Below are positions 11,580-64,000 of a stretch of 64,000 nucleotides of DNA, piece by piece; the first letter of the stretch is position 1, and each line of letters starts with the position of its first letter. The translations under genes were made by a program, and so were the position numbers. Under the pieces are notes generated by a model, which had not been told where the DNA came from, did not search any database, and was given only the letters and a program-made list of their open reading frames with translations. Origin of the DNA: a virus; UHGV virus genome UHGV-0049167, one strand, 5' to 3'.

Positions 11580-11826
11580 GGTTACCAAAAGAACATACAG
11601 AGTGCTACATGCTGTTGATAAGCCATTTTTGAAATTCGGACAGTTTCGCAGGACGAGAGAAAGTATAGGTCTTCCTGTTCAGAGGCGTTGTTTTAATTGC
11701 AACCGTAAGTTCAAGGATGACGATGATGTCTATTTAGTCATGCTAAAAGGAACTCTCAACAGATTGTTTTGTAAAAGCTGCAATGACAAGGCTTTGAATG
11801 ATTTGAAGAAAGGAGGTCTGCAATGA
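11566..11826 (+). CDS. hypothetical protein
   Basis: ORF table 11491; start moved to ATG at 11566 preceded by GAAAGGAGGAAGAAG (RBS-like). Confidence 0.4.
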   Translation: MEVIKVTKRTYRVLHAVDKPFLKFGQFRRTRESIGLPVQRRCFNCNRKFKDDDDVYLVMLKGTLNRLFCKSCNDKALNDLKKGGLQ

Positions 11827-49713: not shown

Positions 49714-49732
49714 GCAAGGAAAGGAGGCTACC

Positions 49733-50158: not shown

Positions 50159-50179
50159 CAATATTAAAGCAACACAAGG

Positions 50180-50710
50180 ATGTTTCAGAATCTACGAGAA
50201 AATTCGCAGTTGTTCATACTGCATAAGGACGGCAATCCATATTTAGAATATGGTACAGTGTCAAGCGTTACAGCTCCCAAGCCAAAATATCCGGTGTCTC
50301 CGGCTCCTATGGGGACATTCCCGCAGATGGAGATGGTGGTGGACATTATGGTGAACATAGGCGGGCAGGTAGTCCCGCTTAAGGACTTGAAAGCTAACGC
50401 CGACATAGACGACAACGGTACGGTAGTGGTATCATGCTCAAAAGACGCGATTAACAGTGAGGTGTCCATGATGAGACAAAAGAGTATGGATATTCTTAGC
50501 AGTACAGATTATCACAAGAATGTCATGGCATGCTGTGACAAGATGCTGAATGACCTTAATCCTGAAATAGCTGCCAAGCGTAAGCAGGATGAAGAGATTA
50601 GAGGCATGAAGGAGCAGATGAATACCATAGTGAAAAGTATGAATATGCTTGCCGAGCAGAACAGGCAGCTGATGGAACAGCTCGGAGTTTCTGATACATC
50701 GCAAAAATAA
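50180..50710 (+). CDS. hypothetical protein
   Basis: 176-aa ORF. Confidence 0.4.
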   Translation: MFQNLRENSQLFILHKDGNPYLEYGTVSSVTAPKPKYPVSPAPMGTFPQMEMVVDIMVNIGGQVVPLKDLKANADIDDNGTVVVSCSKDAINSEVSMMRQKSMDILSSTDYHKNVMACCDKMLNDLNPEIAAKRKQDEEIRGMKEQMNTIVKSMNMLAEQNRQLMEQLGVSDTSQK

Positions 50711-50717
50711 ATAAACT

Positions 50718-51005
50718 ATGGGAATGTGGACAATAATGGAGGAAGGACGTGACGGATACGGTCGCGACTTCGGAATGAGAGGCGGTGAGTCTGAACAGGC
50801 CTACAGACAGGGATTTGAGGATGGCTGCCGCCACGGTTACAAGAAGGCAATGATGGAGGCTCATGAAGATATAGGCTTCCGTAACGGACGTTCTTATGGC
50901 GGTGGGTCATACGGCAATCGTATGTCGGGCTACCAGCCCGAGGATACGTGGTCTGATGACATGGGCGAACGCCGTCATCGTAGGGCTAACGGACAGTTCT
51001 ATTAA
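50718..51005 (+). CDS. hypothetical protein
   Basis: 95 aa, Gly/Arg-rich. Confidence 0.35.
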   Translation: MGMWTIMEEGRDGYGRDFGMRGGESEQAYRQGFEDGCRHGYKKAMMEAHEDIGFRNGRSYGGGSYGNRMSGYQPEDTWSDDMGERRHRRANGQFY

Positions 51006-51066
51006 AAAACAGGACGAAGAGTGAGGAAATGAAATCTTCACTCTTCATTTTTCATTCTTAAAATAA

Positions 51067-51489
51067 ATGATTATGCAAAGACTTGACACATATGATGAGA
51101 TGCCGGAAGGAATGAGGCGATATCTATCTCAGTACGGATGGCATTTTTCAAAAAAACTCTGTGAATGTGCCATAAAAGACATGCGCACACTCAACAAGGT
51201 CACAGGCAAGAAAGAGCCGATGGAGATTATTTCCAAGGAAACAGTGGAAGATCTGTTGAAAAAATATAACTTGAATGTTGATAATTGTAAGGGTTATGAT
51301 GCCGTCTACGTATGGCATATGGCAAAGGCGGATTATTTTAAAAGCTCTGTTGTTGACGAGGCTCATCTGGCGTTGTTCGTGAAAGATTATCTGGACGATA
51401 CCGATGGTTACGACGGCGTGGCTCTTACACGCTATCTTGCTGACTGTATCGGAAACGGGACTCCTGTCGAATGGGAAGATGTATTATGA
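51067..51489 (+). CDS. hypothetical protein
   Basis: 140-aa ORF. Confidence 0.4.
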   Translation: MIMQRLDTYDEMPEGMRRYLSQYGWHFSKKLCECAIKDMRTLNKVTGKKEPMEIISKETVEDLLKKYNLNVDNCKGYDAVYVWHMAKADYFKSSVVDEAHLALFVKDYLDDTDGYDGVALTRYLADCIGNGTPVEWEDVL

Positions 51490-51914
51490 TTGTACAGGAT
51501 TTCGGTTTGCCAGACTATGACTGGAGGATTAGGGTATACTATGCTGTGACGACTTATTGGACAGATGTCATAGTTAATGACCTCATGCGTATCGGTTGTG
51601 GGGGATGTGAGTTGCGTGATGCTTATATGAGTCTCAGACGCGGAGAACTTGATACCGAACTTACATATTCCAACCGAAGCACGCATGAGAGCATCATGGT
51701 TATCGGTCTAACATCATCAGCCGCGCAGTTCCAGAACTCACTCGACCATGAGAAAGGGCATCTCATCAAACATATATCTGTCGCCTTCGGTCTTGACCCT
51801 TATGGTGAAGAGCAACAGTATTTAAGCGGGGAAATAGGGCAGAGGATGTTTCCCGTTGCCCGGAAGTTCCTTTGTGAGCATTGCAGGAGAAAACTTTATG
51901 AAGAAAGATATTGA
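51486..51914 (+). CDS. hypothetical protein (contains HEKGH motif)
   Basis: ORF table 51471; ATG at 51486 gives ATGA coupling; HExxH-like HEKGHLIKH of uncertain significance. Confidence 0.4.
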   Translation: MIVQDFGLPDYDWRIRVYYAVTTYWTDVIVNDLMRIGCGGCELRDAYMSLRRGELDTELTYSNRSTHESIMVIGLTSSAAQFQNSLDHEKGHLIKHISVAFGLDPYGEEQQYLSGEIGQRMFPVARKFLCEHCRRKLYEERY

Positions 51915-52018
51915 CATATTGATAGAAAAAGCGGACGGCATGAAGTACTGCGACTTCTGCCGCTTGCTCTTCGTCCTCTATTGGAACTTAGGTACGGAAT
52001 AAGAGGATTTCCCTAAAA

Positions 52019-52543
52019 TTACAATCCCTTTCTCCTCCCATACTCACATATCAGCAAGGCGTCGCACTTGTTGTCGTCATCGTCCTTGCATCTCTCTGTC
52101 CTACGGAAGTCTATGCGGGGGAAAAGACGCTTTCCCGCGTTCAGCGAGGTTTTTTTTGTATCAATCCTCCTGAGGGTCTTCCCGTTTGTACATTTCGACT
52201 TATACTCCTTATCTTGATTAATCCATATCTCACCCTGCCATATCTTAGGCTGAACAAGATGGTATGGAATACCCAATGCTGTAAGAATCCCTATAAGTAT
52301 TCCATTGATTTTTCCAAATGCGAATGTAGATTTTGCAGACGAGCCTAATATTGCATGTACTTCTTCCATACAGCATACGACGTTACAGTCGCTTGCAAAA
52401 ATTATACCTTTAAGAAAGTCCACAATCTTTGCATATCCGGCATCCTTTATCGAAAGGAAGTCTTTCATCCCGTTCGCATACATTACGGCTATGAACCCTG
52501 CACTTCCAGGGTCTATCCCTATATAAACTCTTCCGCTATCCAT
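52019..52543 (-). CDS. RuvC-like Holliday junction resolvase
   Basis: 174 aa; N-terminal VYIGIDPGSAGFIAVMY matches the RuvC-fold first catalytic motif. Confidence 0.6.
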   Translation of the reverse strand: MDSGRVYIGIDPGSAGFIAVMYANGMKDFLSIKDAGYAKIVDFLKGIIFASDCNVVCCMEEVHAILGSSAKSTFAFGKINGILIGILTALGIPYHLVQPKIWQGEIWINQDKEYKSKCTNGKTLRRIDTKKTSLNAGKRLFPRIDFRRTERCKDDDDNKCDALLICEYGRRKGL

Positions 52544-52572
52544 TCGTCAGTATTTTGTGTTGTATAGTGTTT

Positions 52573-53058
52573 TTACAGTGTATTCTGCTCATTGACCTCA
52601 TTTTTCTTATTATTCCCGTCAGCCTTGCCTTTATCGACCTTAATCTCAACAAACTCTCCTTTTCCGAGCCTCGCCCTGTTTATGCAATCGCCAATCCATT
52701 GCAACAGGTAAGACAAATGTTCGTTGTGCCCTCCATATTCTCGTGCCAATGGCAATACGTTCATAAAAGCGTCAAATACGTGTGAAGCCTCATGGCAGAT
52801 ATTACCCATTGTCATGTTTGTCTTGCCTTTGAAAACCACCAGTTCGCCATACTTGCCGTCCGCTTTCGAACATACTTCTGTAAAAGTCGTTGCAAAACAG
52901 TCCTTGTCATCCCATTTAATCTCATCTCCGTCATGCTCCGTGAAGCAACTCTGTATCTCCGCCCCTGTGGCCTGTGGCATCACCCACAGCTTTCTCGGAT
53001 ATATCACCGGGTCGTATTCATAATAGCCTTTCTTCATACTTTTTCCTTTACACACCAC
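52573..53058 (-). CDS. hypothetical protein
   Basis: 161-aa ORF. Confidence 0.4.
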   Translation of the reverse strand: MVCKGKSMKKGYYEYDPVIYPRKLWVMPQATGAEIQSCFTEHDGDEIKWDDKDCFATTFTEVCSKADGKYGELVVFKGKTNMTMGNICHEASHVFDAFMNVLPLAREYGGHNEHLSYLLQWIGDCINRARLGKGEFVEIKVDKGKADGNNKKNEVNEQNTL

Positions 53059-53095
53059 TTAAATTTGTTCCATAATCCTTCTTTCATAAGCAATA

Positions 53096-53308
53096 TCATT
53101 TGTTTGTCGTTTGTTTCCCTATATGATACATCGAACATACCTTGCATTGGTAAATCCCATACCCTTGCAGCCCCTTGGCCTCTATAAACGCCTCGGCCTC
53201 GTCCTTGCTCCGAAAGCCGCGCTTCGCCACGCCGCGCTTGTTATAATGGCACCTGCGGCTCGGCTTCCGCTCAAACGGCTGCTTGCATATATGTAGCTTT
53301 ATCGCCAT
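53096..53308 (-). CDS. hypothetical small basic protein
   Basis: 70 aa, Cys pairs (CKQP...CKVCSMYH). Confidence 0.3.
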   Translation of the reverse strand: MAIKLHICKQPFERKPSRRCHYNKRGVAKRGFRSKDEAEAFIEAKGLQGYGIYQCKVCSMYHIGKQTTNK

Positions 53309-53368
53309 TCCGATTTAATAAGAACGGTGCAAGCTCAAAGCCCACACCGCCTTAATTTTACTTCCACG

Positions 53369-53797
53369 TCAGACTGGTTTGTTAGAAAGCTGGCTCATAC
53401 GCTCGTCAAGTACATCAAGGTAGCCTTGCATAATACCCTCCTGCTTAGAAAGCAGCTTCCTTTGGTACTCATCAGTAACCGTCTCCAAGAATTTCGGAGA
53501 CTCTATGAACGAACGTAGCTTAGTGAGCTTGTCATGCAGTTCCGTACGCTCGATATAAAGACGGTCAAGAAACGTGTCAGCGCGCTTGTACGCTTTGTCA
53601 AACGGTTCAGCAGGCGACCAGCTTTCATAACCGTCTTGATAGCGGACATGATAACCAGCGTTTGACTTCTCGTTTTCGTTAGGCACTCGGCCTGCTTGCA
53701 GCAATCCTTTCTCGTAAGCCTCGCCCATAGTCATAGGTTCGGCTTCAATCTGTTTTGTTCCGATGTACTTTTTCATAATTATTTGTTTTATATCCAA
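53369..53797 (-). CDS. hypothetical protein
   Basis: 142-aa ORF. Confidence 0.4.
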   Translation of the reverse strand: MDIKQIIMKKYIGTKQIEAEPMTMGEAYEKGLLQAGRVPNENEKSNAGYHVRYQDGYESWSPAEPFDKAYKRADTFLDRLYIERTELHDKLTKLRSFIESPKFLETVTDEYQRKLLSKQEGIMQGYLDVLDERMSQLSNKPV

Positions 53798-54357
53798 TGT
53801 ATAGTTGGTGTTCCATTAAATCCTTTTTCAAATACAAACCAAGCGTAGCATACAGCTCCGTTCCCGTACCTCTCAAAGTCGCCGTTCTTCGCGCAGCTCA
53901 CCCTCTTCGAGAACACCCATATCCTGCTCGGCGGCGTCCTCTCAAACAGCTTTCTGCGCTCCTGACCCTCTAAAAACGTCAGCTTCAGCAGCATGGCAAC
54001 CTTGCGGCCATCGCCGACACACTCAAGAGCCTTATCCACGAAACGCTGCGCGTATTTATACGGTGGATTGGTAACGATGTCGCCTTCCCATTCCTCCGCA
54101 CAAGAGAGAAAATCCATCCTCTCATTGCCAATCCTGTCTATTATGTCGCTCTTCCGCACCTCGTAACCGTGCTTTTCCAGCACTCCCGATATGTGTCCCA
54201 GCCCTACGCACGGCTCCCATATCATGCGGTCAAAGTCCTCCACCGCGAGCAATGCCTCGACCGCCTTCGGGTCTGTTACGTACAAGTCCTCCGGCTGGCG
54301 TTCTTCTTTTGTGTGGTTGCTCGCCCCCAAAGGGGCAAATACGCATTTGTCACTCAT
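53788..54357 (-). CDS. small DNA methyltransferase (NPPY-type, N6-adenine or N4-cytosine)
   Basis: 189 aa; SAM-binding-like EPCVGLGHI and catalytic DIVTNPPYK; no adjacent restriction endonuclease recognised. Confidence 0.65.
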
Positions 54358-54881
54358 GCACCTGCTGTATATGTTCCTGTTATTGGAGCCGTAGTGCTGT
54401 CTGAAAGATGGGCTGTGCTTGTTATCTCCGCCCCATTGATATTCAATTCGATAGATGTTATTTTTGCACCAGTTTCACCTTTCGCACCGGTTGCTCCCTG
54501 CGCGCCTGTGTCCCCTTTGTCTCCCTTTGCACCTTGCTCTCCGGCAGGACCTTGTGCGCCAACGGCACCTTTGGGAATTGAGAATTTTATTTTATACTTT
54601 GGATTTCCGCTTCCGTCGTTGCCATTTGCTACGACTTGGACTGCCGCACTTTCACCTGCTTCAAGCGTATTCACATCGCCAGTCTCAAAAACAGGCGTCT
54701 TGCCGTCGGCTCCTTTGGCTCCCGTAGGACCTTGCGCACCTGCATCACCTTTCATACCTTTAAAAAGCGATGCTTTCGCTTTATACGTCGTCTGCCCGTC
54801 AGACAACGGAATAACCTCGTTCCCTGAAAGTGAGCCTTTTTCAGTCAGCTCGCTTATTTTCTTTCCACCTTTACTTTCCAT
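54354..54881 (-). CDS. collagen-like (Gly-X-Y) repeat protein
   Basis: ORF table start 54917; ATG at 54881 preceded by AAGGAGG; runs of [17 protein letters not shown] and [36 protein letters not shown]. Confidence 0.5.
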
Positions 54882-54904
54882 TTTTACCTCCTTTTTTATT
54901 TTTA

Positions 54905-55288
54905 TTATTCCAAACACAATTCATAGCCGTCATCGGCCAACAGGCTGCTCCCGTCATCGGCTAAGACACGCAGGTCGTTGTCAATGGGAATGTCCTTAGC
55001 CTCGCCGCCAAGTTCCATGACCTTGCAAGCCGTCACCGGGCTTGAACTTTGTATGGTTACCTCCATACCGGCCACGCCTTCTATTCGTACTATCACCGAT
55101 TCATTCTCGTAATAGCCCTTTGGCAAGTAAACCGGGGCGGGGCGTAAGCCTCCAATGCTCTTGTAAACATACAGCCCACCTTTTCTTGAACGTACTATAT
55201 GTACGTCAATGGTATCCGCATCGGGGCTTAACGTACATTTGTACGCCCCTTCTCCTGTCCTTACAAATTCTGTTGTCGTCATTGCCAT
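54905..55288 (-). CDS. hypothetical protein
   Basis: 127-aa ORF. Confidence 0.4.
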
Positions 55289-55794
55289 ATTTTTATTATC
55301 TTATTCGGCTCGTCAGGCTTCGCAATCTCCTCAACCGTGACGTCGCCGCTATATTTGACATCGTTATACCCACCATACACGTAAACGTAGCATTTGCCGA
55401 CGCAGTTAATCCGAACGTTACTCCTGCCACACACGTATATTTTGCACACAGAGCCTTCGGGAACAAGGAGTGACGTGTTGCACCCGACAAGCAAATTCAA
55501 CGTCGCTGGCTGAAAAATATCGCCTCCGTAGTCAACATACAGCTTCGATGTATAACCGCCCTTGTCACGTACATAATTGTTGTTCATGTAGTCACCGAAG
55601 TTGCCAAGGATGTATCTCTTGGACAATCCCCATCCCTCGGCTATCGACTTTGCCATGAACTCGACTCCATTGGCGTCCAAAGCCATGTCGACAAGGTCTT
55701 TCTTTCCCTTAGCCTCGTTCCACTTGACCTTGTATCCGTCGCACAGCCCGAGCATTACAGCATTGCGTTTCAGCGTCAAAAGCTCATTATTCAT
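55279..55794 (-). CDS. hypothetical protein
   Basis: 171-aa ORF. Confidence 0.4.
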   Translation of the reverse strand: MNNELLTLKRNAVMLGLCDGYKVKWNEAKGKKDLVDMALDANGVEFMAKSIAEGWGLSKRYILGNFGDYMNNNYVRDKGGYTSKLYVDYGGDIFQPATLNLLVGCNTSLLVPEGSVCKIYVCGRSNVRINCVGKCYVYVYGGYNDVKYSGDVTVEEIAKPDEPNKIIKIWQ

Positions 55795-56140
55795 TGTTAA
55801 TCTCTAATTTTTCATTTATGTATTTGTCGACTTCCCTGTATATCACATCCGTGAAAACCATCAGCCGTACTTTCCTCACTTTCTTTATTACTGATGAAAC
55901 ATTCATGCCTGCCCTTTGTGCTATGACAGAATATGGCAGACCGTATCTGTCATGCAAGAGTCGGAAACAGAAATGTCTTGCGGTCGCGACAGGCAGCGGG
56001 ATATTGCCTTTTTTGTTGTATAATACGTTCACAGATACGTGTGCTGCTTCTGGACGCAGTTCCATGAAGATTCGGTTTACAGCCTCGCATACAAGAGTCT
56101 CCGCATTGGTGATAAGTGTCTCATTATACATATGTATCAT
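55787..56140 (-). CDS. putative helix-turn-helix DNA-binding protein
   Basis: 117 aa; RHFCFRLLHDRYGLPYSVIAQRAG loosely resembles a DnaA-C-terminal-type HTH; weak. Confidence 0.3.
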   Translation of the reverse strand: MIHMYNETLITNAETLVCEAVNRIFMELRPEAAHVSVNVLYNKKGNIPLPVATARHFCFRLLHDRYGLPYSVIAQRAGMNVSSVIKKVRKVRLMVFTDVIYREVDKYINEKLEINNE

Positions 56141-56553
56141 AATTGTCTTTTTCTTAAATCATCCTCTCCGAGAAGGGGGAAGTTGACTGGATACACAAAA
56201 CCCAATATGGTTCCTCTGTATCTGTCCCCCTCACGCCCAAGCCCCTCGCGAACCATTTGTCTCCAATTATCACCTGGGATATATGGTATCACTATACGCC
56301 TCTGTTCTTTCCACATGGCAATCTTGGTAAGTTCAGGATTCTTGGGCTTGCGAGCTATGAGTGTCAACATAGGGTGTGGAAGCTGATGCTGGTGTAATGA
56401 TGTCTTATGTATGCCATTCTGCAGGTAAGGGATGAATATGCCTCTCCTGCGCACACCGCTGGCATCATCAGCCTCCACCTCCCTCCAGTCACGGAAATTG
56501 GTCAAGTCCAGCCAAATCTTGAAATCATCGGATAGGGTGAAAAAATCGTCCAT
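56137..56553 (-). CDS. hypothetical protein
   Basis: 138-aa ORF. Confidence 0.4.
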   Translation of the reverse strand: MDDFFTLSDDFKIWLDLTNFRDWREVEADDASGVRRRGIFIPYLQNGIHKTSLHQHQLPHPMLTLIARKPKNPELTKIAMWKEQRRIVIPYIPGDNWRQMVREGLGREGDRYRGTILGFVYPVNFPLLGEDDLRKRQL

Positions 56554-56556
56554 GGC

Positions 56557-57087
56557 TCATTTCCCTTTCTCAGTCAGGGCGTCAATCGCCTCATCGAGTA
56601 TCTTTGCTTTCTCACCTTGCTCAAACTCTTCTTTCGGGTCTTCCTCTCTTACGGGAGCCGCCATGGATTCTTCGAGACGCGCCTGCATCTTTGCAAGCCA
56701 TTCCATGTATTCCAAAGAATACTTAGTCGCTCTTTCCTCATCAATAAAAGATGTGAGAGGTGCCATCAGGTTGGACTGTGTCATGATAACCATAGCCTCA
56801 AGTATTTCGCCCTTTGTGCGTCCATTTTCATCGAATGGCTCGCCTTCATGACCGTCATACGCTTTCTTGACATCAATCAGGTTGTCGAGCCATGCATAGA
56901 GACTCTTAGGATGCGCCTTACCGTCAAGCCCAATGGCGTATGGCGTGACCCATATGTGGAATCCTGTGTATGTCTTGAACATTATGCCCGATTTTGTCCT
57001 GATAAGCTCAAAACCTCCGAAATGAACTCTCTCCGTCACATGACTGGATGATATTTTAAACTCATAACTTTTCGCTGTCCTTGCCAT
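56557..57087 (-). CDS. hypothetical protein
   Basis: 176-aa ORF. Confidence 0.4.
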   Translation of the reverse strand: MARTAKSYEFKISSSHVTERVHFGGFELIRTKSGIMFKTYTGFHIWVTPYAIGLDGKAHPKSLYAWLDNLIDVKKAYDGHEGEPFDENGRTKGEILEAMVIMTQSNLMAPLTSFIDEERATKYSLEYMEWLAKMQARLEESMAAPVREEDPKEEFEQGEKAKILDEAIDALTEKGK

Positions 57088-57093
57088 ATGTTG

Positions 57094-57687
57094 TTATCTT
57101 TTGGTTTTCTTCGTCCTTTTAGTTCCCTTATAATCGGTCGCAGACATTATGGTTCTCATTTCCTCCGGTCCCTCCTCAGTATGCATTATCTCAGCCCCTT
57201 CGGGCGGAGACGTTTCCATACTTTCCTTAGCCGCATGTTCCATAGCGTCGGCAGCGATGTCCGCCGGATTGTTCTCCAACTGTAACATTATACCCATCTC
57301 CCTCGACAGCATCTCCAGCTTGTCTGAGTCAGCGGACATTATCTCTTCCTCCCGCCCATTACCGAAAAATGACGATAACGAACGTCTTTGTGCGTCCACG
57401 CTCTTATATACATGCATGAAGCGTTTTTCATCAAAATAAATGTATGGATGGATTGATACGATACCGACAATCTGTGACATCAGACCGAAATCTTTTGTAT
57501 ACCTTATGACTCCGTCGGCTCTACGCTCTGCGAGAGCATAACTCTGGGTCATATTACGTTTCCTTACAAGTACTATCGCCTTTATCCAAAAGCCCATTCC
57601 TTCCTTGTATGCCTTAGGTAACTCCCTGCATGCTGTGGCTTCCAACGCGGATTTAAGTGACTGTTCTTTTATATCCATATATACCAT
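57094..57687 (-). CDS. hypothetical protein
   Basis: 197-aa ORF. Confidence 0.4.
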   Translation of the reverse strand: MVYMDIKEQSLKSALEATACRELPKAYKEGMGFWIKAIVLVRKRNMTQSYALAERRADGVIRYTKDFGLMSQIVGIVSIHPYIYFDEKRFMHVYKSVDAQRRSLSSFFGNGREEEIMSADSDKLEMLSREMGIMLQLENNPADIAADAMEHAAKESMETSPPEGAEIMHTEEGPEEMRTIMSATDYKGTKRTKKTKR

Positions 57688-57695
57688 TGTTTTTG

Positions 57696-58238
57696 TTATT
57701 CATCTCCTGAGAGGTAGTCCTCTATCGTCGTGTCGCTTACGCTAAACGTGCAGCCGTACACGTTCTTGAACTTAAATGGAACCTCCATGTATATTATGCC
57801 CTTCAGGGTGTCTGTGACAGGCTCACTCTTGTCCGACAGATACATCAACACCTTGCGCTGTCTTGCAGTGTCCCTGTATATGACGAGACCGCCGCTTACA
57901 TACTCAACAAAATTGTCATATACCTCACCGGCGGCTTTTATAGCTGCCTGCCTCGATTCTTCATTCGTGACATCACGTCCCAATGGGTCAAAAAAGTATA
58001 GGGTCAGCGTTATGTCTGTCTGCTCATATACCGACAACGGTGACACGTAAACTCTCGCCTTGTCACTCTCTGCATATGTCTCCGTATATATGCCTTTCTG
58101 AACGCCATAGGCGCGCAATCCTGTACACGACTTATACCTAAGCCCCTTGAAATGCTCCTCCAAGTCTACTTCATTGCCAAGTGACCAACCCGATTCTGAC
58201 TGAACAGCCTTCTTTATGTAAAAATGGTATTGAGGCAT
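57696..58238 (-). CDS. hypothetical protein (first gene of minus-strand early module)
   Basis: 180-aa ORF starting next to the ORF-free region. Confidence 0.4.
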   Translation of the reverse strand: MPQYHFYIKKAVQSESGWSLGNEVDLEEHFKGLRYKSCTGLRAYGVQKGIYTETYAESDKARVYVSPLSVYEQTDITLTLYFFDPLGRDVTNEESRQAAIKAAGEVYDNFVEYVSGGLVIYRDTARQRKVLMYLSDKSEPVTDTLKGIIYMEVPFKFKNVYGCTFSVSDTTIEDYLSGDE

Positions 58239-58340
58239 GTATACATTGTTTAATTAGACTACCCAAATATATACATTTACAATGCTTATACATTATTTTT
58301 TGCTGAAAATCAAACGTTTTTGTCATACAAGAACGCCCTT

Positions 58341-58361
58341 GTGTTGCATTTGTGTTGCATT
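58341..58361. repeat. tandem direct repeat GTGTTGCATT x2
   Basis: GTGTTGCATT-T-GTGTTGCATT read directly. Confidence 0.5.
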
Positions 58362-58460
58362 CTCGCTATTCCCTCCATCATAATTGATGGACTTGTGAAT
58401 TAAAAAAAAATAAAAAAAATTTGAGAATGGGTGGCATATGTTCGAACCTTGCCCTATAGC

Positions 58461-58468
58461 GGGGGGGG
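58461..58468. repeat. homopolymeric G8 tract in non-coding DNA
   Basis: AGCGGGGGGGGATACC read directly. Confidence 0.6.
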
Positions 58469-58644
58469 ATACCCTTTATATAAGAGTACGGATACCCACA
58501 AACGTGTAATATTTCGTTATGTCGCTTTTGTGCGCTGCTTTCACGTATGCAAATACACGTGTTTATTTATATGCCTTTAATCGTGCATTATTTGCGTGCA
58601 TAACGTCCGTATGTATGCAAATACGTAAATGTACCATATCTTTA

Positions 58645-58685
58645 TTAACGCGTATATATAAATATATTTATATAGTACGCGTTAA
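58645..58685. promoter_or_regulatory. 41-bp near-perfect palindrome (TTAACGCGTA arms around an AT-rich self-complementary core)
   Basis: TTAACGCGTATATATAAATATATTTATATAGTACGCGTTAA; outer 10-bp arms are exact reverse complements. Confidence 0.5.
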
Positions 58686-59062
58686 CTAAAGATATAAAAT
58701 CTTTTCGCGAATGCTCCGTACATTGCCTTTAAACAGTCCATAATAACACACACATTGCAACAACTGCAAAGCCGTGCGTTAACAGCCCGCCAATACATGG
58801 AGCGATAAGGGGCACACGCGCGTAACTTAAAGGCGTCAGAAGGCACGCAAACCGTGTTACTGCAAAGGTTTTAAGGTGTTTGTACTCTTATTTTGCATTA
58901 ACTGTAATACCTTGATTGTCAATGTGTTAAAGTGTTGTTTATTACATGAAAATAAACGGGATATAATTTTGTCATTTCAATATTTATTACTACATTTGCA
59001 ATGTAAGAGGTACGGAGAGAAACCCAAAGGCTTACAAGCGTTCTTTTTGGATATTGGGCAAT

Positions 59063-59097
59063 AAAAAAGCCCCTGCAAAGTCGCAATTTGCAGGGGC
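59063..59097 (-). terminator. intrinsic terminator (minus-strand orientation)
   Basis: 10-11 bp perfect stem CCCCTGCAAA / TTTGCAGGGG with 7-nt loop; A6 on the plus side gives a T-run after the stem on the minus strand. Confidence 0.55.
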
Positions 59098-59609
59098 GGC
59101 GCAAACGCAAAAGCGCTGCGAGTTCATCTACTGAACGGGCACAAAGTTAGTGATTTACTTTTGATTGTACAAGAAAAAGCGAAAGTAAATTCAATTTCCA
59201 AAGAAAAAAGAATGAGACGAGCAAAGGACCCGAAAAGGTCGAGCCATATAAACAACGTGCGAAAGTAATGCACTGGTACGGGCTTTACACCTACACAAAC
59301 AGCCCCCGAAAGCCGTTGAGGTGAACACGGCAAAGGAAGTCGCAATACTTCCGGGCGTTCATTGAAAAGGTATGATTTTGCGAATAACCCGCCAATGTGG
59401 GTCGCTAATAGCGAGGCGGTCTATATTGGTGTATGATACAGGGTGCCGAATGGGAAATGTAGTGCGGTAGTGTAGCGGCAATCGGTTTGCGCTGCACGAG
59501 TTGCTAATAGGCCGGTAGGACGGAAACAAACAAATTACCGTGTGAGAGAGAGAAACGCGCCGGGGTTGTGTATCCGGGGCGGAACTGTTTGGACGGCTTG
59601 CACGGAACG

Positions 59610-59643
59610 AAAAAACCGCCTGCAATAATGCAGACGGAGGCGG
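59610..59643 (-). terminator. intrinsic terminator candidate (minus-strand orientation)
   Basis: stem CCGCCT / AGGCGG enclosing an internal CTGCA-ATAA-TGCAG hairpin; A6 upstream on plus gives T6 after the stem on minus. Confidence 0.45.
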
Positions 59644-59768
59644 ACGGCCTTAACCGTCCAAATTCAAAAGCGTACTTATATGCGAATTTATTTTGTGTTT
59701 AAGTTGTGGCGTATTCGGTTACTCTTTATTGAGTTCCGAATAACTCTATTTAGATAATAGAGCCACGG

Positions 59769-59818
59769 CGCGGCGGTAATGTTAACGGCATTTGCCGCCG
59801 CGTTTCGCTTTTGTTCTG
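59769..59818 (+). terminator. intrinsic terminator candidate (plus-strand orientation)
   Basis: 8-bp GC stem CGCGGCGG / CCGCCGCG followed by TTTCGCTTTTGTTCTG. Confidence 0.45.
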
Positions 59819-60555
59819 CAAATATAGAGTTTATTTCTTTCGGTTGTTCCTTCTGTTAGGAATAATTAAGTAAAAACTCAGTAAAGCCGTAAGACGAAAG
59901 AAGCGATGTAAGGTTATGAAGAGACTGAGCTGTTTGAGGTAAGCCGTAAATGTATTACTGAGAAATTGAATATTTGTTCAAAATTAATCGATATTATAAA
60001 TCTTATCAGCTGCATCTATATCTTGACCATCATATTATGCAATATTTGTATAAGGCAAGCCGTGCTTGGCAAACCGTGAGTAAGCTCGACTGAATACGTA
60101 TTTAAAATCGAGGCAGCGACAGACATACCCGTCAATGTCTGGACTGATATGCAGTCGGCATGCGGTATTCAGACTGTATGGTACAGCATAATACTTAATG
60201 CATTATTTGACAATATACGCAAGACAGTTGCTATGCTTTGATTTTCAATGGTCAAGAAATTCCACTGTCAATGACTTTCAACGTTGTACGGTTCTTATTT
60301 CCCAAAAGATTTAACCCGAATCGGTCATCAGACTTCATCCTTATTTCGCACTGCTGTCAGCCAGATTATATTCAGCTTTTATCGGAAATATAGCGGGCTG
60401 CACCGGAAAAAAGCTGGAGGCAAGATTACGGCAGCAGTGCGGAATTGTAGTTATTTTGAATACTCCGACCTACGTTGGTAACTTGCGGAAATGATAGAGC
60501 GTTTCAAAAAGAGAGTGGAGAAGAAAATAAACGACAACTTTTAAAACATGCAACC

Positions 60556-60798
60556 ATGACACAGAAAAAAGCATTAAACCAATTAGAGGAATATTGCAGG
60601 GTGAACAATATGCACCTTATAAATTCAACCTTTATAAAAGGTGCGTACGCTCTTGTAATTCACGACGCACCTGGCGAATGGGTGCAGGGTGTGGCAAACA
60701 TGCCTTGCCGCCGTTTGAGCGGATATTTAACCCCGAAAGAGCTGCTTTTGTGGCTTGACGGCTATCATGCAGGACTTCAGGCGAACAAAAACAAATAA
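60556..60798 (+). CDS. hypothetical protein
   Basis: ORF table 60475; internal ATG at 60556 (MTQKKALNQLEEY...) preferred. Confidence 0.3.
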   Translation: MTQKKALNQLEEYCRVNNMHLINSTFIKGAYALVIHDAPGEWVQGVANMPCRRLSGYLTPKELLLWLDGYHAGLQANKNK

Positions 60799-60970
60799 AC
60801 TACGGAGACAGGGAAGGAACTTTACTCCTACAAAGTCGTAAAAAGGGGTGGCAAGTACATTATAATTTCACCATACGACGGGCGGAAGATAGGAACGCTT
60901 CAATAAATTCACTTATTTTGTGGATTATGTAAAATAAAAGAATTATATTTGCACCAGCAAAGACAACGCT

Positions 60971-61288
60971 ATGCTAATCGAATTTTACAAAGACTACCTG
61001 CGCGAACTATTTGTGCAAGGTCGGACGAACGACAAGAAACACCGCTATCAACCCGAAATAATAAAAGGTTACAAAAAGTGCGTGATGTTCTTAAAACGAG
61101 CAAACAACGTGGAGCAACTTTACCCTATCCACTCCTTGAACTGCGAAGTTTTACAGGGCGACAAAAAGGGTGTTTCATCCGTGCGAATAAACAGGCAATA
61201 CCGACTTGAATTTACAGTAAGGGATATTTTAGGCGAGCAAATTGTCACAGTGTGCCGTCTATTGGAAATAAGCAACCACTACAAATAA
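60971..61288 (+). CDS. higB: HigB-like toxin (RelE/ParE superfamily)
   Basis: 105 aa; LQGDKKGVSSVRINRQYRLEFTV...VTVCRLLEISNHYK matches the HigB pattern; immediately upstream of a HigA-like HTH gene. Confidence 0.7.
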   Translation: MLIEFYKDYLRELFVQGRTNDKKHRYQPEIIKGYKKCVMFLKRANNVEQLYPIHSLNCEVLQGDKKGVSSVRINRQYRLEFTVRDILGEQIVTVCRLLEISNHYK

Positions 61289-61296
61289 ATACAAAT

Positions 61297-61632
61297 ATGG
61301 AAACAGCAAAGAGAATTTACAGACCTGACGAGTTGCAGCCGTCCGAGCCTATACATCCGGGCGAAATGCTGAAAGACGAATTGCAAGCCCGTGGAATGTC
61401 GCAAAAGAAATTCGCCGCCATAATAGGAATGCCTTACACGGCTTTTAACGAGATTATAAACGGCAAGCGGCCTATAACTACCGACACGGCGTTAAGGATA
61501 GAGGCTGCAACAGGGATAGCCGCAAACATTTGGCGCGGTCTTCAATCTGACTACGACATAATGGCGGCACGACGAAACAACAAACTCACCGCCATACTTG
61601 ACAACATACGTAAGGCGGTGGCGGTGCTTTAA
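61297..61632 (+). CDS. higA: HigA-like antitoxin (XRE-type HTH)
   Basis: ATG at 61297; HPGEMLKDELQARGMSQKKFAAIIGMPYTAFNEIINGKRPITTDTALRIEAATG is a HigA-type HTH. Confidence 0.7.
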   Translation: METAKRIYRPDELQPSEPIHPGEMLKDELQARGMSQKKFAAIIGMPYTAFNEIINGKRPITTDTALRIEAATGIAANIWRGLQSDYDIMAARRNNKLTAILDNIRKAVAVL

Positions 61633-61851
61633 CATCTTATTATCATCCGCAAATTACGCCCGTACAAAGGTTTAAGCCTTTGCACGGGCTTTTAACAAAA
61701 AAAACGAAATGTAAAAAAGATACATCTCGTTTTAATGATTTTATATTATTTCCCGAAAAAATCGGAATGCAGCAAGAATGCTCACATTCCGAACTTACAG
61801 ACACCTTACAAACGGTGTTCTAATGGCAATACAACAGCATTCAAGTCGTGT

Positions 61852-62412
61852 TCAGACAGTTTTATTGTTTTCCGTCTGTTTCTTATAAAGCATAATGTCT
61901 GTGTATTTGGAAGAGTAATTCATGTGTGCGTTGAACTCCACTTTTTCACAATTTTTGAAAGGGTGTCCGAGTGTCCTGTTTTCACCAAGCCATTCGCAAA
62001 GTTCAATTATCGATGACTTGTTGGATGTGAAATGGACAAAAGGTTTGTTCCTTAGCACGTTCAATACGTCCAAATAGTCGGAAAACCGCCAGTACATCTT
62101 ATACGTACCTACATCCGTTGACAGATAAGGCAGGTCTACAATGAACACCACGCCCGGAACATTCTTGTACGTCATATACAGTTCCTTGTAGTCACATGAC
62201 GTTACGGTCAGACCTTCCAGGTAATCGGGGCACGGCTGATAGTCCGTCTTGCGTATGTTGTTGTAAAGTATTTCCTTGCGCATGGCTTCAAGGCTCGTGG
62301 CATACTTCATCGAGAACATCAGTGCCGATGATACGGTGATATAGTCCTCTTTTAGTACCTTTTCGTACCGTTTGGTACACACTTTTAAACCTATTTTTAT
62401 TGCCAAAAACAA
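61852..62412 (-). CDS. hypothetical protein; true start probably downstream of the tabulated TTG
   Basis: tabulated start lies inside the T-run of the adjacent terminator; next ATG about 62319; DLPY tetrapeptide weakly reminiscent of methyltransferase motif IV but no SAM-binding motif seen. Confidence 0.3.
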   Translation of the reverse strand: MFLAIKIGLKVCTKRYEKVLKEDYITVSSALMFSMKYATSLEAMRKEILYNNIRKTDYQPCPDYLEGLTVTSCDYKELYMTYKNVPGVVFIVDLPYLSTDVGTYKMYWRFSDYLDVLNVLRNKPFVHFTSNKSSIIELCEWLGENRTLGHPFKNCEKVEFNAHMNYSSKYTDIMLYKKQTENNKTV

Positions 62413-62440
62413 CAGAAAAAGGCGACTTTTTAGGGTCGCC
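62405..62440 (-). terminator. intrinsic terminator downstream of the tRNA fragment (minus-strand orientation)
   Basis: stem GGCGAC / GTCGCC with 8-nt loop, followed on the minus strand by TTTTTCTGTTGTTTTT. Confidence 0.55.
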
Positions 62441-62478
62441 TTTGCTCGTAAATATCTGATTTTAAGCAGTTTAACTTT

Positions 62479-62515
62479 TGGAGCGGCAAACGGGATTCGA
62501 ACCCGCGACCCCCAG
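62479..62515 (-). tRNA. tRNA 3'-terminal fragment only (T-arm, acceptor 3' strand, CCA); att-core-like remnant, not a complete gene
   Basis: minus-strand reading GTCGCGGGTTCGAATCCCGTTTGCCGCTCCA has the GGTTCGAATCC T-loop and terminal CCA; no complementary 5' acceptor strand or D/anticodon arms upstream. Confidence 0.5.
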
Positions 62516-62792
62516 CTTGGGAAACTTTATGATAATTGTATAACTCATTTATTTTCAGAAGTTTAACGTTTTTATAAATTTTTGGTCGCAGCTTAATCGC
62601 AGGTCGCAGTTTTGTTAGCTTGAAATGACGGAATTGGGCTTATAGTTGGGAATGTTAATTACAACGCTGGAGTACAGAATTGCATAAACATTCCAATTCT
62701 TCAATATCAGGGCTTGCACCTGTATCAAATTTGTTGTCGTCTGTGCTTATATTGTAGATTGCCAATTCTACGAAAGTAAGCAACCTGTCAAC

Positions 62793-62993
62793 TTATGGCA
62801 GGTCTGCTGGCTGGCAACTGTTCCATTCTTGCTTGAGACGCTCTTTTATCAGTTTCAAGCGTGCCACCGCCTCTGTGCCGCTTAGGACCTCACATTCCGT
62901 AACGCATTCTGAAATACTATATTTTTTGTTTTGCATATTCTGTTTTGTTATATTTTGTATATATTTGTGGCTGACTTTAGTCAACGGTATCAA
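62793..62993 (-). CDS. hypothetical small protein
   Basis: 66-aa ORF. Confidence 0.3.
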   Translation of the reverse strand: MIPLTKVSHKYIQNITKQNMQNKKYSISECVTECEVLSGTEAVARLKLIKERLKQEWNSCQPADLP

Positions 62994-63381
62994 TTACAGT
63001 GAGACTTAATGTCATTTCGGTGTTGGCAATTTTTCTCCGTCCATCTTTCCATGAAATAAGCAGGGTGGCGGTAGTCCTGTCATTATCATAAAGGCTTACG
63101 GGATGGTCAAAGAAAGTCCCCTGCGCAAGAGTTGGGATGACGAGCGTGTTGTTTGCGGTATGCAGATTGATGCACCTGCTGTCATTGCAGGTGACAGTTA
63201 CAGAAGTGGCACAATGATTTCCGTCATTCCTTACCCGCATGACGAAACTCCTGCCTGACTTCAAAAGGCGAACGGATATTGACGCAGACCTGCTTTTCGC
63301 AAATGCCATGTAAGCGTTGTAAACGCCGGTTATAGCCGCTATTGTTGATGCTATTATTGTTATGTAATCTTTTAAATCCAT
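62977..63381 (-). CDS. hypothetical protein
   Basis: 134-aa ORF. Confidence 0.4.
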   Translation of the reverse strand: MDLKDYITIIASTIAAITGVYNAYMAFAKSRSASISVRLLKSGRSFVMRVRNDGNHCATSVTVTCNDSRCINLHTANNTLVIPTLAQGTFFDHPVSLYDNDRTTATLLISWKDGRRKIANTEMTLSLTVIDTVD

Positions 63382-63588
63382 AAGTTATGAAATTAAGAAT
63401 TAAAGAGTTTTTGAGAATTTTCCTTATTGGTGACGAATGGGGTGAGGACAAGGACGGTAACCGCCACATCTATACGGATGAGTATATATTCCGTGTCCAC
63501 CTAATCGCGCAGGGCATTGCCATTGGTTTACTCGGATTTGCGCTCGTCTTGCACATTCTTGGGTGACGCCAGCCCTCGACGATGATTT

Positions 63589-63981
63589 TCAATCACGCTC
63601 GAACTGCGCCTGTAAGTTCTTTTCGCAGCAATTTGAAATACCACTCATCTGCGCAGGTTTCCTGTACTTTGAGTCGTTCTCTTTATATTGATTATATATT
63701 TCGGTTATTCGTTTATCGTATTTCCATAAATTATTGAACAATTCCATAAAACCAGCTAATTCTGAATCATAATTCACATAATCGTGTTCTGAAAGTTCGT
63801 TAACCATCCATGAAACGGAACTTACAAATCCAGCAACATCAATATCGTTGTTGTTGAATTTTGCTATTTGGATGAACCTTTTTGCCATGTTACTGAAAAG
63901 AGGTAGAACTTTATCCCATTCTTTTGTATGTGCAAACGATTTGGCAAAAGTCATTTCTTCTAAAATAAAATGCCTGTTCAT
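63589..63981 (-). CDS. hypothetical protein
   Basis: 130-aa ORF near the window edge. Confidence 0.4.
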   Translation of the reverse strand: MNRHFILEEMTFAKSFAHTKEWDKVLPLFSNMAKRFIQIAKFNNNDIDVAGFVSSVSWMVNELSEHDYVNYDSELAGFMELFNNLWKYDKRITEIYNQYKENDSKYRKPAQMSGISNCCEKNLQAQFERD

Positions 63982-64000
63982 ATCGTTTCTGATTTCATCA

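Follow-up and report, generated by a model that had tools for sequence, protein, structure and literature searches.

Attachment sites in tRNA genes are an ordinary, well-understood kind of feature. In tDNA-targeting elements, the temperate phages and genomic islands of Islander with the sublocation classes of Williams 2002, the regenerated tRNA has a tyrosine integrase gene beside it, its 3' part is duplicated in the element, and the far end is recognisable by the displaced 3' fragment; all of this holds for the system described here. Three further groups are close to one or another part of it. Pseudo-circular contigs arise where flanking repeats exceed the k-mer length; as in the contig analysed here, their ends overlap by exactly k, the supposedly complete circular viral genome includes host genes, and the repeat exceeds k but not the larger k of a second assembly in which it is resolved. 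The Bacteroidota tyrosine integrases with a PF13102 domain, known from conjugative transposons and NBU-type elements, have in common with the present integrase this domain together with a weak catalytic match, a size near 400 aa and a host among the Bacteroidales. Finally, genomes of the lambda-bio architecture keep one prophage-host junction and the adjacent host DNA, and their opposite end including int is missing. Like the lambda gal/bio transducing genomes, our circular contig keeps attR and host DNA and is without the int end.

The DNA under study is a stretch of 64,000 nucleotides (the window) of the virus genome UHGV-0049167, near the end of which a partial tRNA is found. We attribute this site to attR, the distal junction of a temperate phage of ~79.9 kb in the tRNA-Gly(CCC) gene of Leyella lascolaii, with a probability of about 0.93.

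Results

A displaced tRNA-Gly fragment and its terminator

The features at the junction are the following.

62479–62523, minus strand: displaced 3' part of tRNA-Gly(CCC), starting in the anticodon loop and ending with CCA (identical to the intact genes in L001 and L025)
62481–62523, minus strand: att core of 43 nt, common to attB, attL, attR and attP (att alignment and classification of core-bearing loci)
62409–62443, minus strand: intrinsic terminator native to the transcription unit of host tRNA-Thr and tRNA-Gly (terminator scan, fold, identity to the empty site)
62524–62792, minus strand: phage P arm of the attachment site, non-coding (the same sequence precedes the core in attR and attP loci)

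The fragment (TTCCCAAGCTGGGGGTCGCGGGTTCGAATCCCGTTTGCCGCTCCA) corresponds to the 3' 45 nt of tRNA-Gly(CCC), CCA included, and consists from 5' to 3' of the anticodon loop (CCC), the 3' strand of the anticodon stem, the variable loop, the T-arm, the 3' acceptor strand, the discriminator U and CCA. Genuine tRNA-Gly(CCC) genes of Leyella lascolaii and other genomes end in the same sequence, with 100% identity. The identity starts in the anticodon loop, with similarity at the BLAST level reaching 62526, and a 32-mer of the fragment occurs once in the window against 0 occurrences expected by chance. No tRNA was detected by dedicated scans: ARAGORN returned 0 tRNA genes on the whole window, and Rfam gave none in the window at the gathering threshold and none around the site even at E ≤ 10. 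The site lacks a complete cloverleaf (5' acceptor strand, D-arm, anticodon stem) and is not a functional tRNA gene; the fold of 62479–62560 is no better than that of shuffled sequences (z = 0.12). The fragment is followed by a stem-loop at 62418–62443 on the minus strand, found by the terminator scan, with a 9-bp stem containing 5 GC pairs and a subsequent T-tract (fold z = −2.4). An identical terminator lies 3' of the intact tRNA in the empty-site loci L001 and L025.

These results agree with a first-pass annotation of the window, which had reported an isolated tRNA 3' end without a complete tRNA, had named the detection of a complete tRNA by a dedicated scan as grounds for rejection, and had described a strong intrinsic terminator after the fragment, which proved genuine by scan and fold. 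The fragment itself had been described as T-arm, acceptor strand and CCA; these parts are present, but it is longer, extending back to the anticodon loop.

Attachment-site configurations

All four att configurations, attB, attL, attR and attP, were recovered from public assemblies. The empty site attB, in which an intact tRNA is followed by the same flank as in the window, was found on a 313-kb scaffold (L025) and in L001, L039, L041–L043 and L046–L048. In L025 the order is rubrerythrin, asparaginase, S41 peptidase, further genes, HigB, HigA, the methyltransferase pseudogene, tRNA-Gly, tRNA-Thr, a NAD-binding gene and GlmM, and the match of the window to this locus ends inside the tRNA, at position ~29–32. 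Besides the window, at least five contigs (L015, L016, L017, L038 and L040) carry attR, with phage, core, the same host flank and chromosome in this order. The attL loci (L029, L031, L044, L045, L049 and L056–L061) start from the other chromosomal side and read NAD-binding gene, tRNA-Thr, intact tRNA-Gly, phage P' flank with its own terminator, a 405-aa integrase and, further on, a 180-aa gene that is identical to window positions 57696–58238. The tRNA of L029 and L031 is called tRNA-Gly(ccc) by ARAGORN, and the phage arm that follows the attL tRNA is 99.9% identical to the window. Finally, attP with P arm, core and P' arm is present in L018/L019, where the P' arm is interrupted ~100 nt past the core by an ISL3 element. 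Both attL and int are documented by other assemblies, whose phage and host DNA is 99.9–100% identical, and not by the window's own sample.

The two flanks that can follow the core decide the assignment. In attL and in the true attP of L018/L019 the core leads into a phage-borne flank beginning AACATCTAAAAC, whereas in the window it leads into the flank CAAAAGTTAAAC, which is 100% identical to L015, and the P' arm is absent there. The site is attR and not attP because the 43-nt core runs into native host flank rather than into the phage P' arm. Past the core, the host flank and the P' arm are homologous to each other (77–83% over 90–122 nt). The first-pass annotation had offered an att core at the distal junction of a tRNA-integrated element and attP of a free phage as alternatives; the first is borne out by the recovered configurations and the second is contradicted by the flank. 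It had also oriented the site correctly: the high-coordinate side is the element, represented by the P arm, and the low-coordinate side is the tRNA downstream flank (98.95% identity to L025, 100% to L015). The comparison that it had suggested, with an uninterrupted tRNA locus, yielded the empty site with its breakpoint within the tRNA.

Heterologies between the two partners were followed in L015 with L031 and in L016 with L029, each pair taken as the ends of one prophage on the basis of a shared sample and sequence identity and not of a spanning contig. A variant of the third anticodon base stays in attR (T in L016, against C in attL of L029 from the same sample), and an A in the T-loop stays in attL (A in L031, against G in attR of L015 from the same sample).

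Integrase, candidate arm sites and proposed mechanism of integration

In L029, L031 and L056–L061, ~205 nt separate the tRNA from the start of the 405-aa protein. This protein scored 50.6 bits against PF13102, above the cutoff, and 18.6 bits against the catalytic domain PF00589 (residues 203–378), under the cutoff of 27.1. XerC/XerD profiles were aligned in full length, over residues 134–385, with E of about 3e-8, homologues at 80% identity carry a precomputed PF00589 assignment, and a search against PDB sequences gave no match. Taken together, these similarities suggest that the protein has the catalytic role of an integrase.

The sequence of the P arm precedes the core in the attR loci L015–L017, L038 and L040 as well as in the attP loci L018/L019. 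It contains the motif CTGCGACC twice, at 62584–62591 and 62602–62609. In attL loci the CTGCGACC pair is found again in the P' arm, on the upstream side of int; the empty-site locus L025 lacks it. These pairs are candidate arm-type binding sites of the integrase.

We propose the following mechanism. The phage carries the gene of the putative 405-aa tyrosine integrase next to its own attP. This attP contains 43 nt copied from the tRNA 3' part, which begin in the anticodon loop and end one base past the discriminator; a diverged version of the tRNA 3' flank, belonging to the phage itself, and a terminator come next. Exchange mediated by Int would take place inside the core, and the natural variants probably put the crossover within the 20-nt interval AAGCTGGGGGTCGCGGGTTC. 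Integration would then rebuild a complete, terminated tRNA-Gly at attL beside int, and the original 3' fragment, with the native terminator and the downstream chromosome, would be pushed to the far end of the prophage, where it is seen as the fragment of the window. In the sublocation classes of Williams 2002, a core from the anticodon loop to the 3' end reportedly falls into the anticodon-loop class.

The host flank

On the low-coordinate side of the core, the window holds the following features.

59778–62480: chromosomal flank of Leyella lascolaii downstream of tRNA-Gly, inside the circular contig (identity to L015 and L025, gene order)
61852–62346, minus strand: 5'-truncated D12/Dam-type adenine methyltransferase pseudogene (homologue search and alignment)
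60971–61288, plus strand: HigB-like toxin (Pfam)
61297–61632, plus strand: HigA antitoxin (Pfam; NCBIfam HigA equivalog)

Positions 59657–64000 show zero differences from the lysogen junction contig L015 (100% identity), and positions 59762–62526 are 98.95% identical to the empty site L025; over the tRNA downstream flank, terminator included, the identity to empty-site loci is 98.95–99.5%. The gene order of the flank runs on to S41 peptidase, asparaginase and rubrerythrin in L007, L015, L016 and L025. HigA reached 72.4 bits against the NCBIfam equivalog (cutoff 47.7), and the exact HigB and HigA proteins are named in Leyella lascolaii records. The methyltransferase pseudogene covers residues 103–261 of 268-aa homologues, with DPPY changed to DLPY. 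Its full-length homologues are the last gene of a module of DUF4376, an 80-aa protein, a ThyA-like protein and the methyltransferase, which abuts varied chromosomal genes, and the pseudogene is a scrap of the terminal gene of another mobile element. The possibility that methyltransferase and HigBA formed the P' arm of this phage lineage found no support for the methyltransferase, the full-length copies of which end a different module.

The phage body

Two parts of the window belong to the phage proper.

1–59656: body of the same temperate phage (Pfam, precomputed Pfam, identity to prophage contigs)
62793–64000, minus strand: attR-proximal phage end (collinear at 98–100% with L015–L024; Pfam on the L015 genes)

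The genes of the body include a PDDEXK-FtsK-like protein, PAPS reductase, ImmA/HTH, amidase, a 2720-aa protein, portal, terminase and a 1915-aa tape measure protein, among others, and the phage encodes RecT. The body is 99.9–100% identical to the prophage contigs L030, L031 and L033, and in the lysogen it continues into the integrase module. At the attR-proximal end, ORFs of 66 aa (62793–62993), 134 aa (62977–63381) and, on the plus strand, 59 aa are followed by a 221-aa gene, of which the window includes the C-terminal part; in relatives this region is the tail of an operon with a cI-like HTH gene, aimed at attR. The phage genes at 1–58 kb are those of the same phage as the high-coordinate side. 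Two elements in tandem, which had been envisaged, are contradicted by the left 10.8 kb of the source contig, into which the high side continues.

Among the GenBank phages (INPHARED) no DNA similar to 52000–64000 was found. In IMG/VR there was nothing with the CCA-containing or the CCA-free core and no relatives of the 180-aa or the 134-aa gene; the phage is not in that collection. A literature search on L. lascolaii prophages found nothing relevant.

Repeat R and the circular source contig

The window contains no integrase, as had been annotated: none was found by Pfam on 30 ORFs or by precomputed Pfam on the called genes, and tblastn of the window with the lysogen's integrase and resolvase gave a best E of 0.33 and no recombinase. 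A second copy of the core was likewise found neither in the window nor in its own contig. Both absences were traced to a repeat.

59461–59877: repeat R (alignment and mismatch map against L031 and L015)

R is a 417-bp direct repeat (~85–100% identity) with an exact 121-bp segment at 59657–59777. One copy, R_p, lies in the prophage beside the integrase module and the other, R_c, in the chromosome ~3 kb beyond attR. Within 59657–59777 the contig changes from prophage-type to chromosome-type sequence: in the mismatch map all differences from L031 lie at or above 59778 (with zero mismatches over 49663–59777) and all differences from L015 at or below 59656. The 74.8-kb source contig is circular, and in the window it combines the two junction contigs of the lysogen in an exact mosaic; positions 1–7442 of L026 equal 7442–1 of L015 at 99.99%. 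The ends of the source contig overlap by 55 bp, the overlap being the projection onto L015 for contig positions 1–1939. Starting in the prophage interior, the circle thus passes attR, takes in 2.6 kb of host DNA and re-enters the prophage via the 121-bp perfect repeat. It bypasses attL and a 7.66-kb module of int, HTH, resolvase and LPD29, and because of this the window holds neither an integrase nor a second core.

A circular or permuted contig, one of the solutions suggested in the first-pass annotation for phage genes at 1–58 kb on the apparently wrong side, does explain their position; closure through a 121-bp repeat that skips the integrase end had not been anticipated. The absence of a second core and of a recombinase from the replicon had also been put forward as an argument against an attachment site. 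Both are absent from the contig and the finding stands; the test misleads here because the contig is not the true replicon.

Two explanations of the circle were considered. We lean towards an assembly artefact, in which a de Bruijn graph with k = 55 collapsed the 121-bp repeat of an ordinary lysogen into a cycle. The contig is an exact mosaic of L031 and L015 with the switch inside the shared 121 bp, and its terminal overlap of 55 bp points to k = 55, shorter than the repeat. The lysogen contigs of ERR321544 were assembled at k = 127, longer than the repeat, and here, in a sample whose sequence is 100% identical, the canonical lysogen is resolved. Logan unitigs of ERR321544 moreover have their breakpoints right at the borders of the shared repeat (L017 at 59841, L033 at 59686). 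Against the artefact, ERZ1304310, to which the source contig NODE_165 belongs, and ERR321544 are possibly from different runs or individuals, paired reads usually bridge 121 bp, and the int module is absent among the matches listed for the window's sample.

With a more tentative standing, the circle may be a real int-less recombinant, formed by homologous recombination between R_p and R_c and carrying attR and 2.6 kb of host DNA with HigBA. It has the architecture of a specialised-transducing genome, with one att junction and host DNA kept and the opposite prophage end gone. The clean single crossover in the 121-bp perfect segment of the direct repeat and the RecT of the phage would fit such an origin, and two hairpin-loop alleles inside R, which occur in phage and chromosomal copies alike, suggest ongoing exchange between phage and chromosome. 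An assembler that faces a balanced repeat ambiguity normally stops and does not close a cycle, which also counts for a real molecule. On the other hand, the window part is an exact mosaic of two ERR321544 lysogen contigs, a graph cycle is expected from a plain lysogen when k = 55 is below the repeat length, coverage is low (8x according to the contig name) and the hybrid junction was not found again in any independent case. The reciprocal product (attL, int, further genes, R, chromosome) was not found either, but the attL loci end before or inside R. That the circle is in addition a propagating int-less derivative of the phage, a natural lambda-bio-like transducing genome in a gut Bacteroidales host, is doubtful. 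Such a molecule, with attR, the host tRNA terminator and the host HigBA pair, could establish lysogeny only if RecA of the host or RecT of the phage recombined it homologously within its 2.6 kb of captured host DNA.

Discussion

In one other reading of the site, the circular contig is a free phage genome, the site its attP, and fragment, terminator, methyltransferase pseudogene and HigBA its P' arm, the chromosomal copy being the remnant of an old phage. The circularity of the source contig, the homology of host flank and P' arm past the core, the presence of R in phage and chromosome and the mobile-element-type genes of the flank (truncated methyltransferase, HigBA) would be compatible with it, and the chromosomal flank may plausibly derive from an earlier relative. 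The real attP of L018/L019 and every attL, however, have a different P' arm straight after the core and then int; over 4.3 kb the flank agrees at 100% with the chromosomal copy in L015, and the switch to prophage-type sequence falls exactly within the 121-bp shared repeat; and the arrangement is seen in one contig only, against a canonical left end in three long contigs. A free phage would have phage DNA on both flanks of the core and an integrase in the same genome; here one flank is host DNA and there is no integrase anywhere in the 74.8 kb. We consider this reading very improbable. A decayed tRNA pseudogene or chance tRNA-like sequence without any mobile element, which the lack of a complete tRNA and of a recombinase in the window might suggest, is refuted: the fragment agrees at 100% with the 3' 45 nt of a live tRNA gene, the match breaking off sharply in the anticodon loop; the same breakpoint divides phage from host DNA in at least six assemblies; and matching attB, attL and attP were established in the att alignment, the empty-site match and the classification of core loci.

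With the site as attR, the analysis defines attB, attP, attL, attR, a 43-nt core, a putative crossover interval of ~20 nt and the probable cognate integrase for a phage of Leyella lascolaii; this ~80-kb temperate phage of the human gut was previously undescribed. The att sites and the integrase help to annotate prophages and may serve as an integration tool in Prevotellaceae. The contig also calls for caution: an apparently complete circular viral genome includes 2.6 kb of host chromosome and is without 7.7 kb of true phage DNA including the integrase, host DNA having been gained and the integrase lost because of a 121-bp repeat outside the att sites. The host toxin-antitoxin pair in the contig would be mis-scored as phage cargo. 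Should the circle be real, it would represent a natural specialised-transducing variant in the gut microbiome.

In summary, the system shows no fundamental difference from tDNA-targeting elements, the new specifics being the host Leyella lascolaii, the tRNA-Gly(CCC) target and the ~80-kb phage. Its phage-borne tRNA replacement is without an encoded CCA and brings its own terminator, and its integrase is of a divergent SAM_5-type with a sub-threshold PF00589 match. Compared to the other Bacteroidota integrases with PF13102, this one is phage-borne and tRNA-targeting. With respect to lambda gal/bio genomes, the join lies in a 121-bp perfect repeat, so that the recombination would be homologous and not illegitimate, and the molecule is putative, an assembly cycle explaining it equally well or better. 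From other pseudo-circular contigs it differs in that the repeat is not the att core, which at 43 nt is shorter than k, but an unrelated 121-bp identity between the prophage interior and a site 3 kb outside, so that the circle loses phage DNA and also gains host DNA.

The displaced tRNA 3' end

The minus strand of the window carries at 62479-62523, in order, an anticodon loop TTCCCAA (anticodon CCC), a 3' anticodon stem GCTGG, a variable loop GGGTC, a T-arm GCGGG-TTCGAAT-CCCGT, a 3' acceptor strand TTGCCGC, a discriminator T and CCA. The first-pass annotation had recognized the T-arm, acceptor strand and CCA, which stand, but the tRNA-derived stretch starts at the anticodon loop and spans 45 nt. 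Its description as an isolated 3' end is confirmed: upstream there is neither a D-arm nor a 5' acceptor strand, ARAGORN returned no tRNA in the whole window, and Rfam gave no match at the gathering threshold and no tRNA match around the fragment even at E ≤ 10. For the 82 nt that include the fragment, folding was on a par with shuffled controls (z = 0.12). A single copy of the 32-mer GGTCGCGGGTTCGAATCCCGTTTGCCGCTCCA is present in the window, where none would be expected by chance. The terminator was likewise found, as a terminator-type hairpin ~35 nt downstream with nine pairs (five G-C), followed by a T-tract.

Features of the region
57696-58238, 180-aa gene of the phage
58240-59460, ~1.2-kb gene-free phage stretch
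59461-59877, repeat R
61852-62412, open reading frame similar to D12/Dam-type methyltransferases
62418-62443, terminator-type hairpin
62481-62523, 43-nt att core
62584-62591 and 62602-62609, octamer CTGCGACC
62977-63381, 134-aa open reading frame

The intact tRNA gene and its flank

In a scan of one genome per species, the 32-mer formed the 3' end of intact tRNA-Gly(CCC) genes, among them those of two Bdellovibrionales genomes and of Leyella lascolaii khD1 (L001), where tRNA-Thr(CGT) precedes tRNA-Gly. Downstream of the CCA, window and khD1 are 99.5% identical over 793 bp, a match that includes the terminator. With the NAD-binding gene upstream of the khD1 tRNA pair as anchor, a 313-kb scaffold (L025) was recovered, in which the order is rubrerythrin, asparaginase, S41 peptidase, a gene-poor stretch, an 80-aa ORF, HigB, HigA, the methyltransferase, tRNA-Gly(CCC), tRNA-Thr, the NAD-binding gene and GlmM. 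Window 59762-62526 matches L025 with 98.95% identity, and the match stops within the tRNA, 48 nt from its 3' end. The low-coordinate side is therefore the original chromosomal flank of the tRNA, as its orientation had indicated, and L025 supplies the uninterrupted locus (attB) with which a comparison had been proposed.

The reading frame just below the terminator corresponds to residues 103-261 in methyltransferases of 268 aa. It lacks the N-terminal ~100 residues and has DLPY in place of DPPY, and is therefore a truncated pseudogene. Below it in the window lies a HigB/HigA pair. The full-length methyltransferase is the last gene of another module (DUF4376, 80-aa ORF, thymidylate-synthase-like gene, methyltransferase), which adjoins unrelated chromosomal genes that vary by genome. 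Strains differ on both sides of the scrap. In the type-strain-like khD1, similarity to the window and to L025 extends 118 bp beyond the methyltransferase stop, and the sequence diverges from the equivalent of window 61734 downward (L001 7849-8000), on which ground HigBA is apparently absent from the corresponding position. Upstream of the truncation point (window 62356), contigs L007-L014 from a second group of gut assemblies differ: in their first 30-125 nt the truncated gene is joined, exactly at that point, to another sequence, in which a divergently transcribed gene begins that has a Bacteroidetes-type promoter motif. Each of the eight contigs ends no more than 125 bp from this joint, which implies another repeat or rearrangement at the scar.

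Separately, in Bacteroides/Phocaeicola, a P. vulgatus assembly among them, the tRNA-Gly(CCC) genes were seen to carry 24-35-nt inserts in the D-loop, with two unrelated sequences at the same position (L003 2908-3002, minus; L005 1642-1736, plus; L004 1826-1932, plus). ARAGORN missed these genes; the Rfam tRNA model scored them at 50-52 bits, skipping the insert. In L003 and L005 the insert folds into a perfect hairpin of 10 bp; in the L004 version the cloverleaf is preserved, with an extra hairpin. A literature search returned no account of D-loop inserts in bacterial tRNAs; retained expansion, an unusual intervening sequence or a pseudogene would each be a possible explanation.

One phage on both sides

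The contigs that encode exactly the 134-aa reading frame include the source contig NODE_165 (74,848 bp) and several others (L015-L021). On the high side, L015-L021 carry a phage early/lysogeny region (cI-like HTH, GSP_synth, HTH_17, Band_7, RecT); on the low side, L015 and L016 lead through the host flank to the S41 peptidase and asparaginase genes. NODE_165 itself stops only ~55 bp past window 64000. Its left 10.8 kb (L026) holds GSP_synth, HTH_17, Band_7 and RecT in this order and a PDDEXK-FtsK gene that runs into window position 1, and over L026 1-7442 the identity to L015 7442-1 is 99.99%. When the ends of NODE_165 are projected onto L015, they overlap by 55 bp; the contig is therefore circular, and the high-side element and the genes at 1-58 kb therefore belong to one phage. 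A circular or permuted genome, offered earlier to reconcile the phage genes at 1-58 kb with the junction, thus holds for the contig, and its companion proposal of two tandem elements, with the phage at 1-58 kb as a second insertion, is rejected, since L026 continues the high side and leads into window position 1.

Among the phage accessory genes are a HipA_C-like protein (below cutoff) followed by a HIRAN-domain protein (12709-14432), and an ImmA/IrrE-type metallopeptidase fused to an HTH (16248-17303), possibly an anti-repressor or induction switch. Directly downstream of the portal gene (32942-34426, minus), a 2720-aa reading frame (24780-32942, minus) contains three ~290-nt direct repeats (27133-28292) and a 69-nt pair (28527-28793). 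The GC content is 0.53-0.54 across 24-30 kb compared to ~0.45 elsewhere.

The integrase module and the attachment sites

The left prophage end became apparent from the surroundings of the 180-aa gene. In L029 (from a 241-kb scaffold), L030 and L031, all of them long contigs, a ~7.7-kb module precedes the phage arm with this gene. From the tRNA outward it encodes a 405-aa integrase, a 224-aa HTH protein, a resolvase, a 415-aa protein, small ORFs and an LPD29-domain protein, and it directly adjoins an intact tRNA-Gly(CCC), followed by tRNA-Thr and the NAD-binding gene. The integrase matched PF13102 above cutoff and PF00589 over its full length but below threshold, and aligned to XerC/XerD profiles with E about 3e-8; at least six other assemblies encode the identical protein (P0294) at this position. 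The window holds none of the module: with its integrase, resolvase and HTH protein as queries, tblastn reached E = 0.33 at best, and Pfam detected no recombinase among 30 window ORFs, in agreement with the first-pass annotation, which had recognized no integrase there. The tRNA-Gly at attL in the lysogens (L029 2045-2125, L031 628-710) has no encoded CCA, reading ...GCCGCU-CAA, and shows a T-loop G>A change in some phage variants; the lysogen's only tRNA-Gly copy at the locus is therefore partly phage-specified.

Alignment of attB (L025), attL (L029, L031) and attR (window, L015, L016) gave the classical pattern. All share the 43-nt core TTCC[C]AAGCTGGGGGTCGCGGGTTC[G]AATCCCGTTTGCCGCTC. The 5' part of the tRNA is common to attL and attB, and in attR phage DNA reaches to ...ATCATAAAGT, where the core begins. 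After the core, attB and attR continue with CAAAAGTTAAAC... into the host terminator, and attL with AACATCTAAAAC... into a diverged phage-borne copy of the flank and then int. This copy brings a stronger hairpin of its own, GGCGGTTA...TAACCGCC with T5 after it (z = -5.4). Metagenome contigs were scanned with a CCA-independent core pattern and classified together with the loci from the other searches.

Attachment sites by class, from the core-pattern scan and the other searches
attB: L001, L025, L039, L041-43, L046-48
attL: L029, L031, L044, L045, L049
attR: window, L015-17, L038, L040
attP (P arm, core, P' arm): L018, L019

The window site is unambiguously attR and not attP. The earlier proposal of an att core at the distal junction of a tRNA-integrated element thus stands, and its variant, attP of a free phage genome, falls. 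Every defining feature of attR that can be tested in silico was found, attL and int being seen only in other assemblies, in DNA 99.9-100% identical; for attP two defining features are missing.

At the third anticodon base, variation (C, T or A) is confined to attR copies; attR L016 has T and attL L029, from the same sample, has C. The T-loop G>A variant occurs only in attL copies (in one sample, A in L031 vs G in L015). Assuming that each attL/attR pair stems from one prophage, these variants would place the crossover within AAGCTGGGGGTCGCGGGTTC. The P arm has two copies of the octamer CTGCGACC, and two more, oriented alike, lie in the P' arm immediately before int; the empty-site locus (20.6 kb) has none. 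We regard these copies as candidate arm-type sites. In both attP-type contigs (L018 ~11000-12509, L019 ~11000-11322) an ISL3-family transposase interrupts the P' arm ~100 nt past the core, between the phage-borne terminator and the octamer pair with int; by this insertion, int and its arm sites would be cut off from the core.

Origin of the circle lacking int

The match of the window to the left part of the prophage ends at 59877, and its match to the attR/chromosome contig starts at 59461 and continues to higher coordinates; the overlap defines repeat R. The prophage copy of R is located between the LPD29 gene and the non-coding DNA that precedes the 180-aa gene; the chromosomal copy lies about 3 kb beyond attR. 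With the two junction contigs of the lysogen in run ERR321544, the window shows zero differences over 49663-59777 (L031) and 59657-64000 (L015). L031 and L015 are themselves exactly alike for 121 bp, at 59657-59777. Over these coordinates, the source contig is therefore an exact mosaic of one lysogen's two junction contigs, switched within a 121-bp perfect repeat. Its path takes in 2.6 kb of host DNA (59778-62480) and bypasses 7.66 kb that belongs to the phage. Added together, the pieces amount to about 79.85 kb for the true prophage.

We favor, with a probability of roughly 0.6, an assembly artefact in which the circle is a graph cycle through R. The 55-bp end overlap of NODE_165 implies a k below 121 bp, for which such a cycle is expected from a plain lysogen, while L015 and L031, named 'k127', resolve R; the breaks in the Logan unitigs of the run coincide exactly with the ends of the shared sequence. 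Excision by RecA or RecT between the R copies would yield the same sequence as a real molecule, and we hold this to be a possible, less probable origin than the artefact.

R contains a GC-rich hairpin with two alternative loop alleles, GCCGTTAACATTA and TTC-CAGCTTTGA, each found in both prophage and chromosomal copies from different samples, which suggests gene conversion or exchange between these copies. The adjacent gene-free stretch, with long A-runs at about 58398-58420 and a TA-rich palindrome (58635-58696) that gave spurious mir-466 matches on both strands, could be an origin or regulatory region. The terminator region of the host flank is 77-83% similar to the phage P' arm; together with the presence of R in both phage and flank, this suggests that earlier relatives of the phage left traces there.

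Relation to known systems

The case is instructive mainly for method: what passes for a 'complete circular viral genome' can hold host DNA and lack its own integrase. As we found no literature on L. lascolaii prophages, the phage and its att system would represent a previously undescribed example of the known attachment to tRNA genes.
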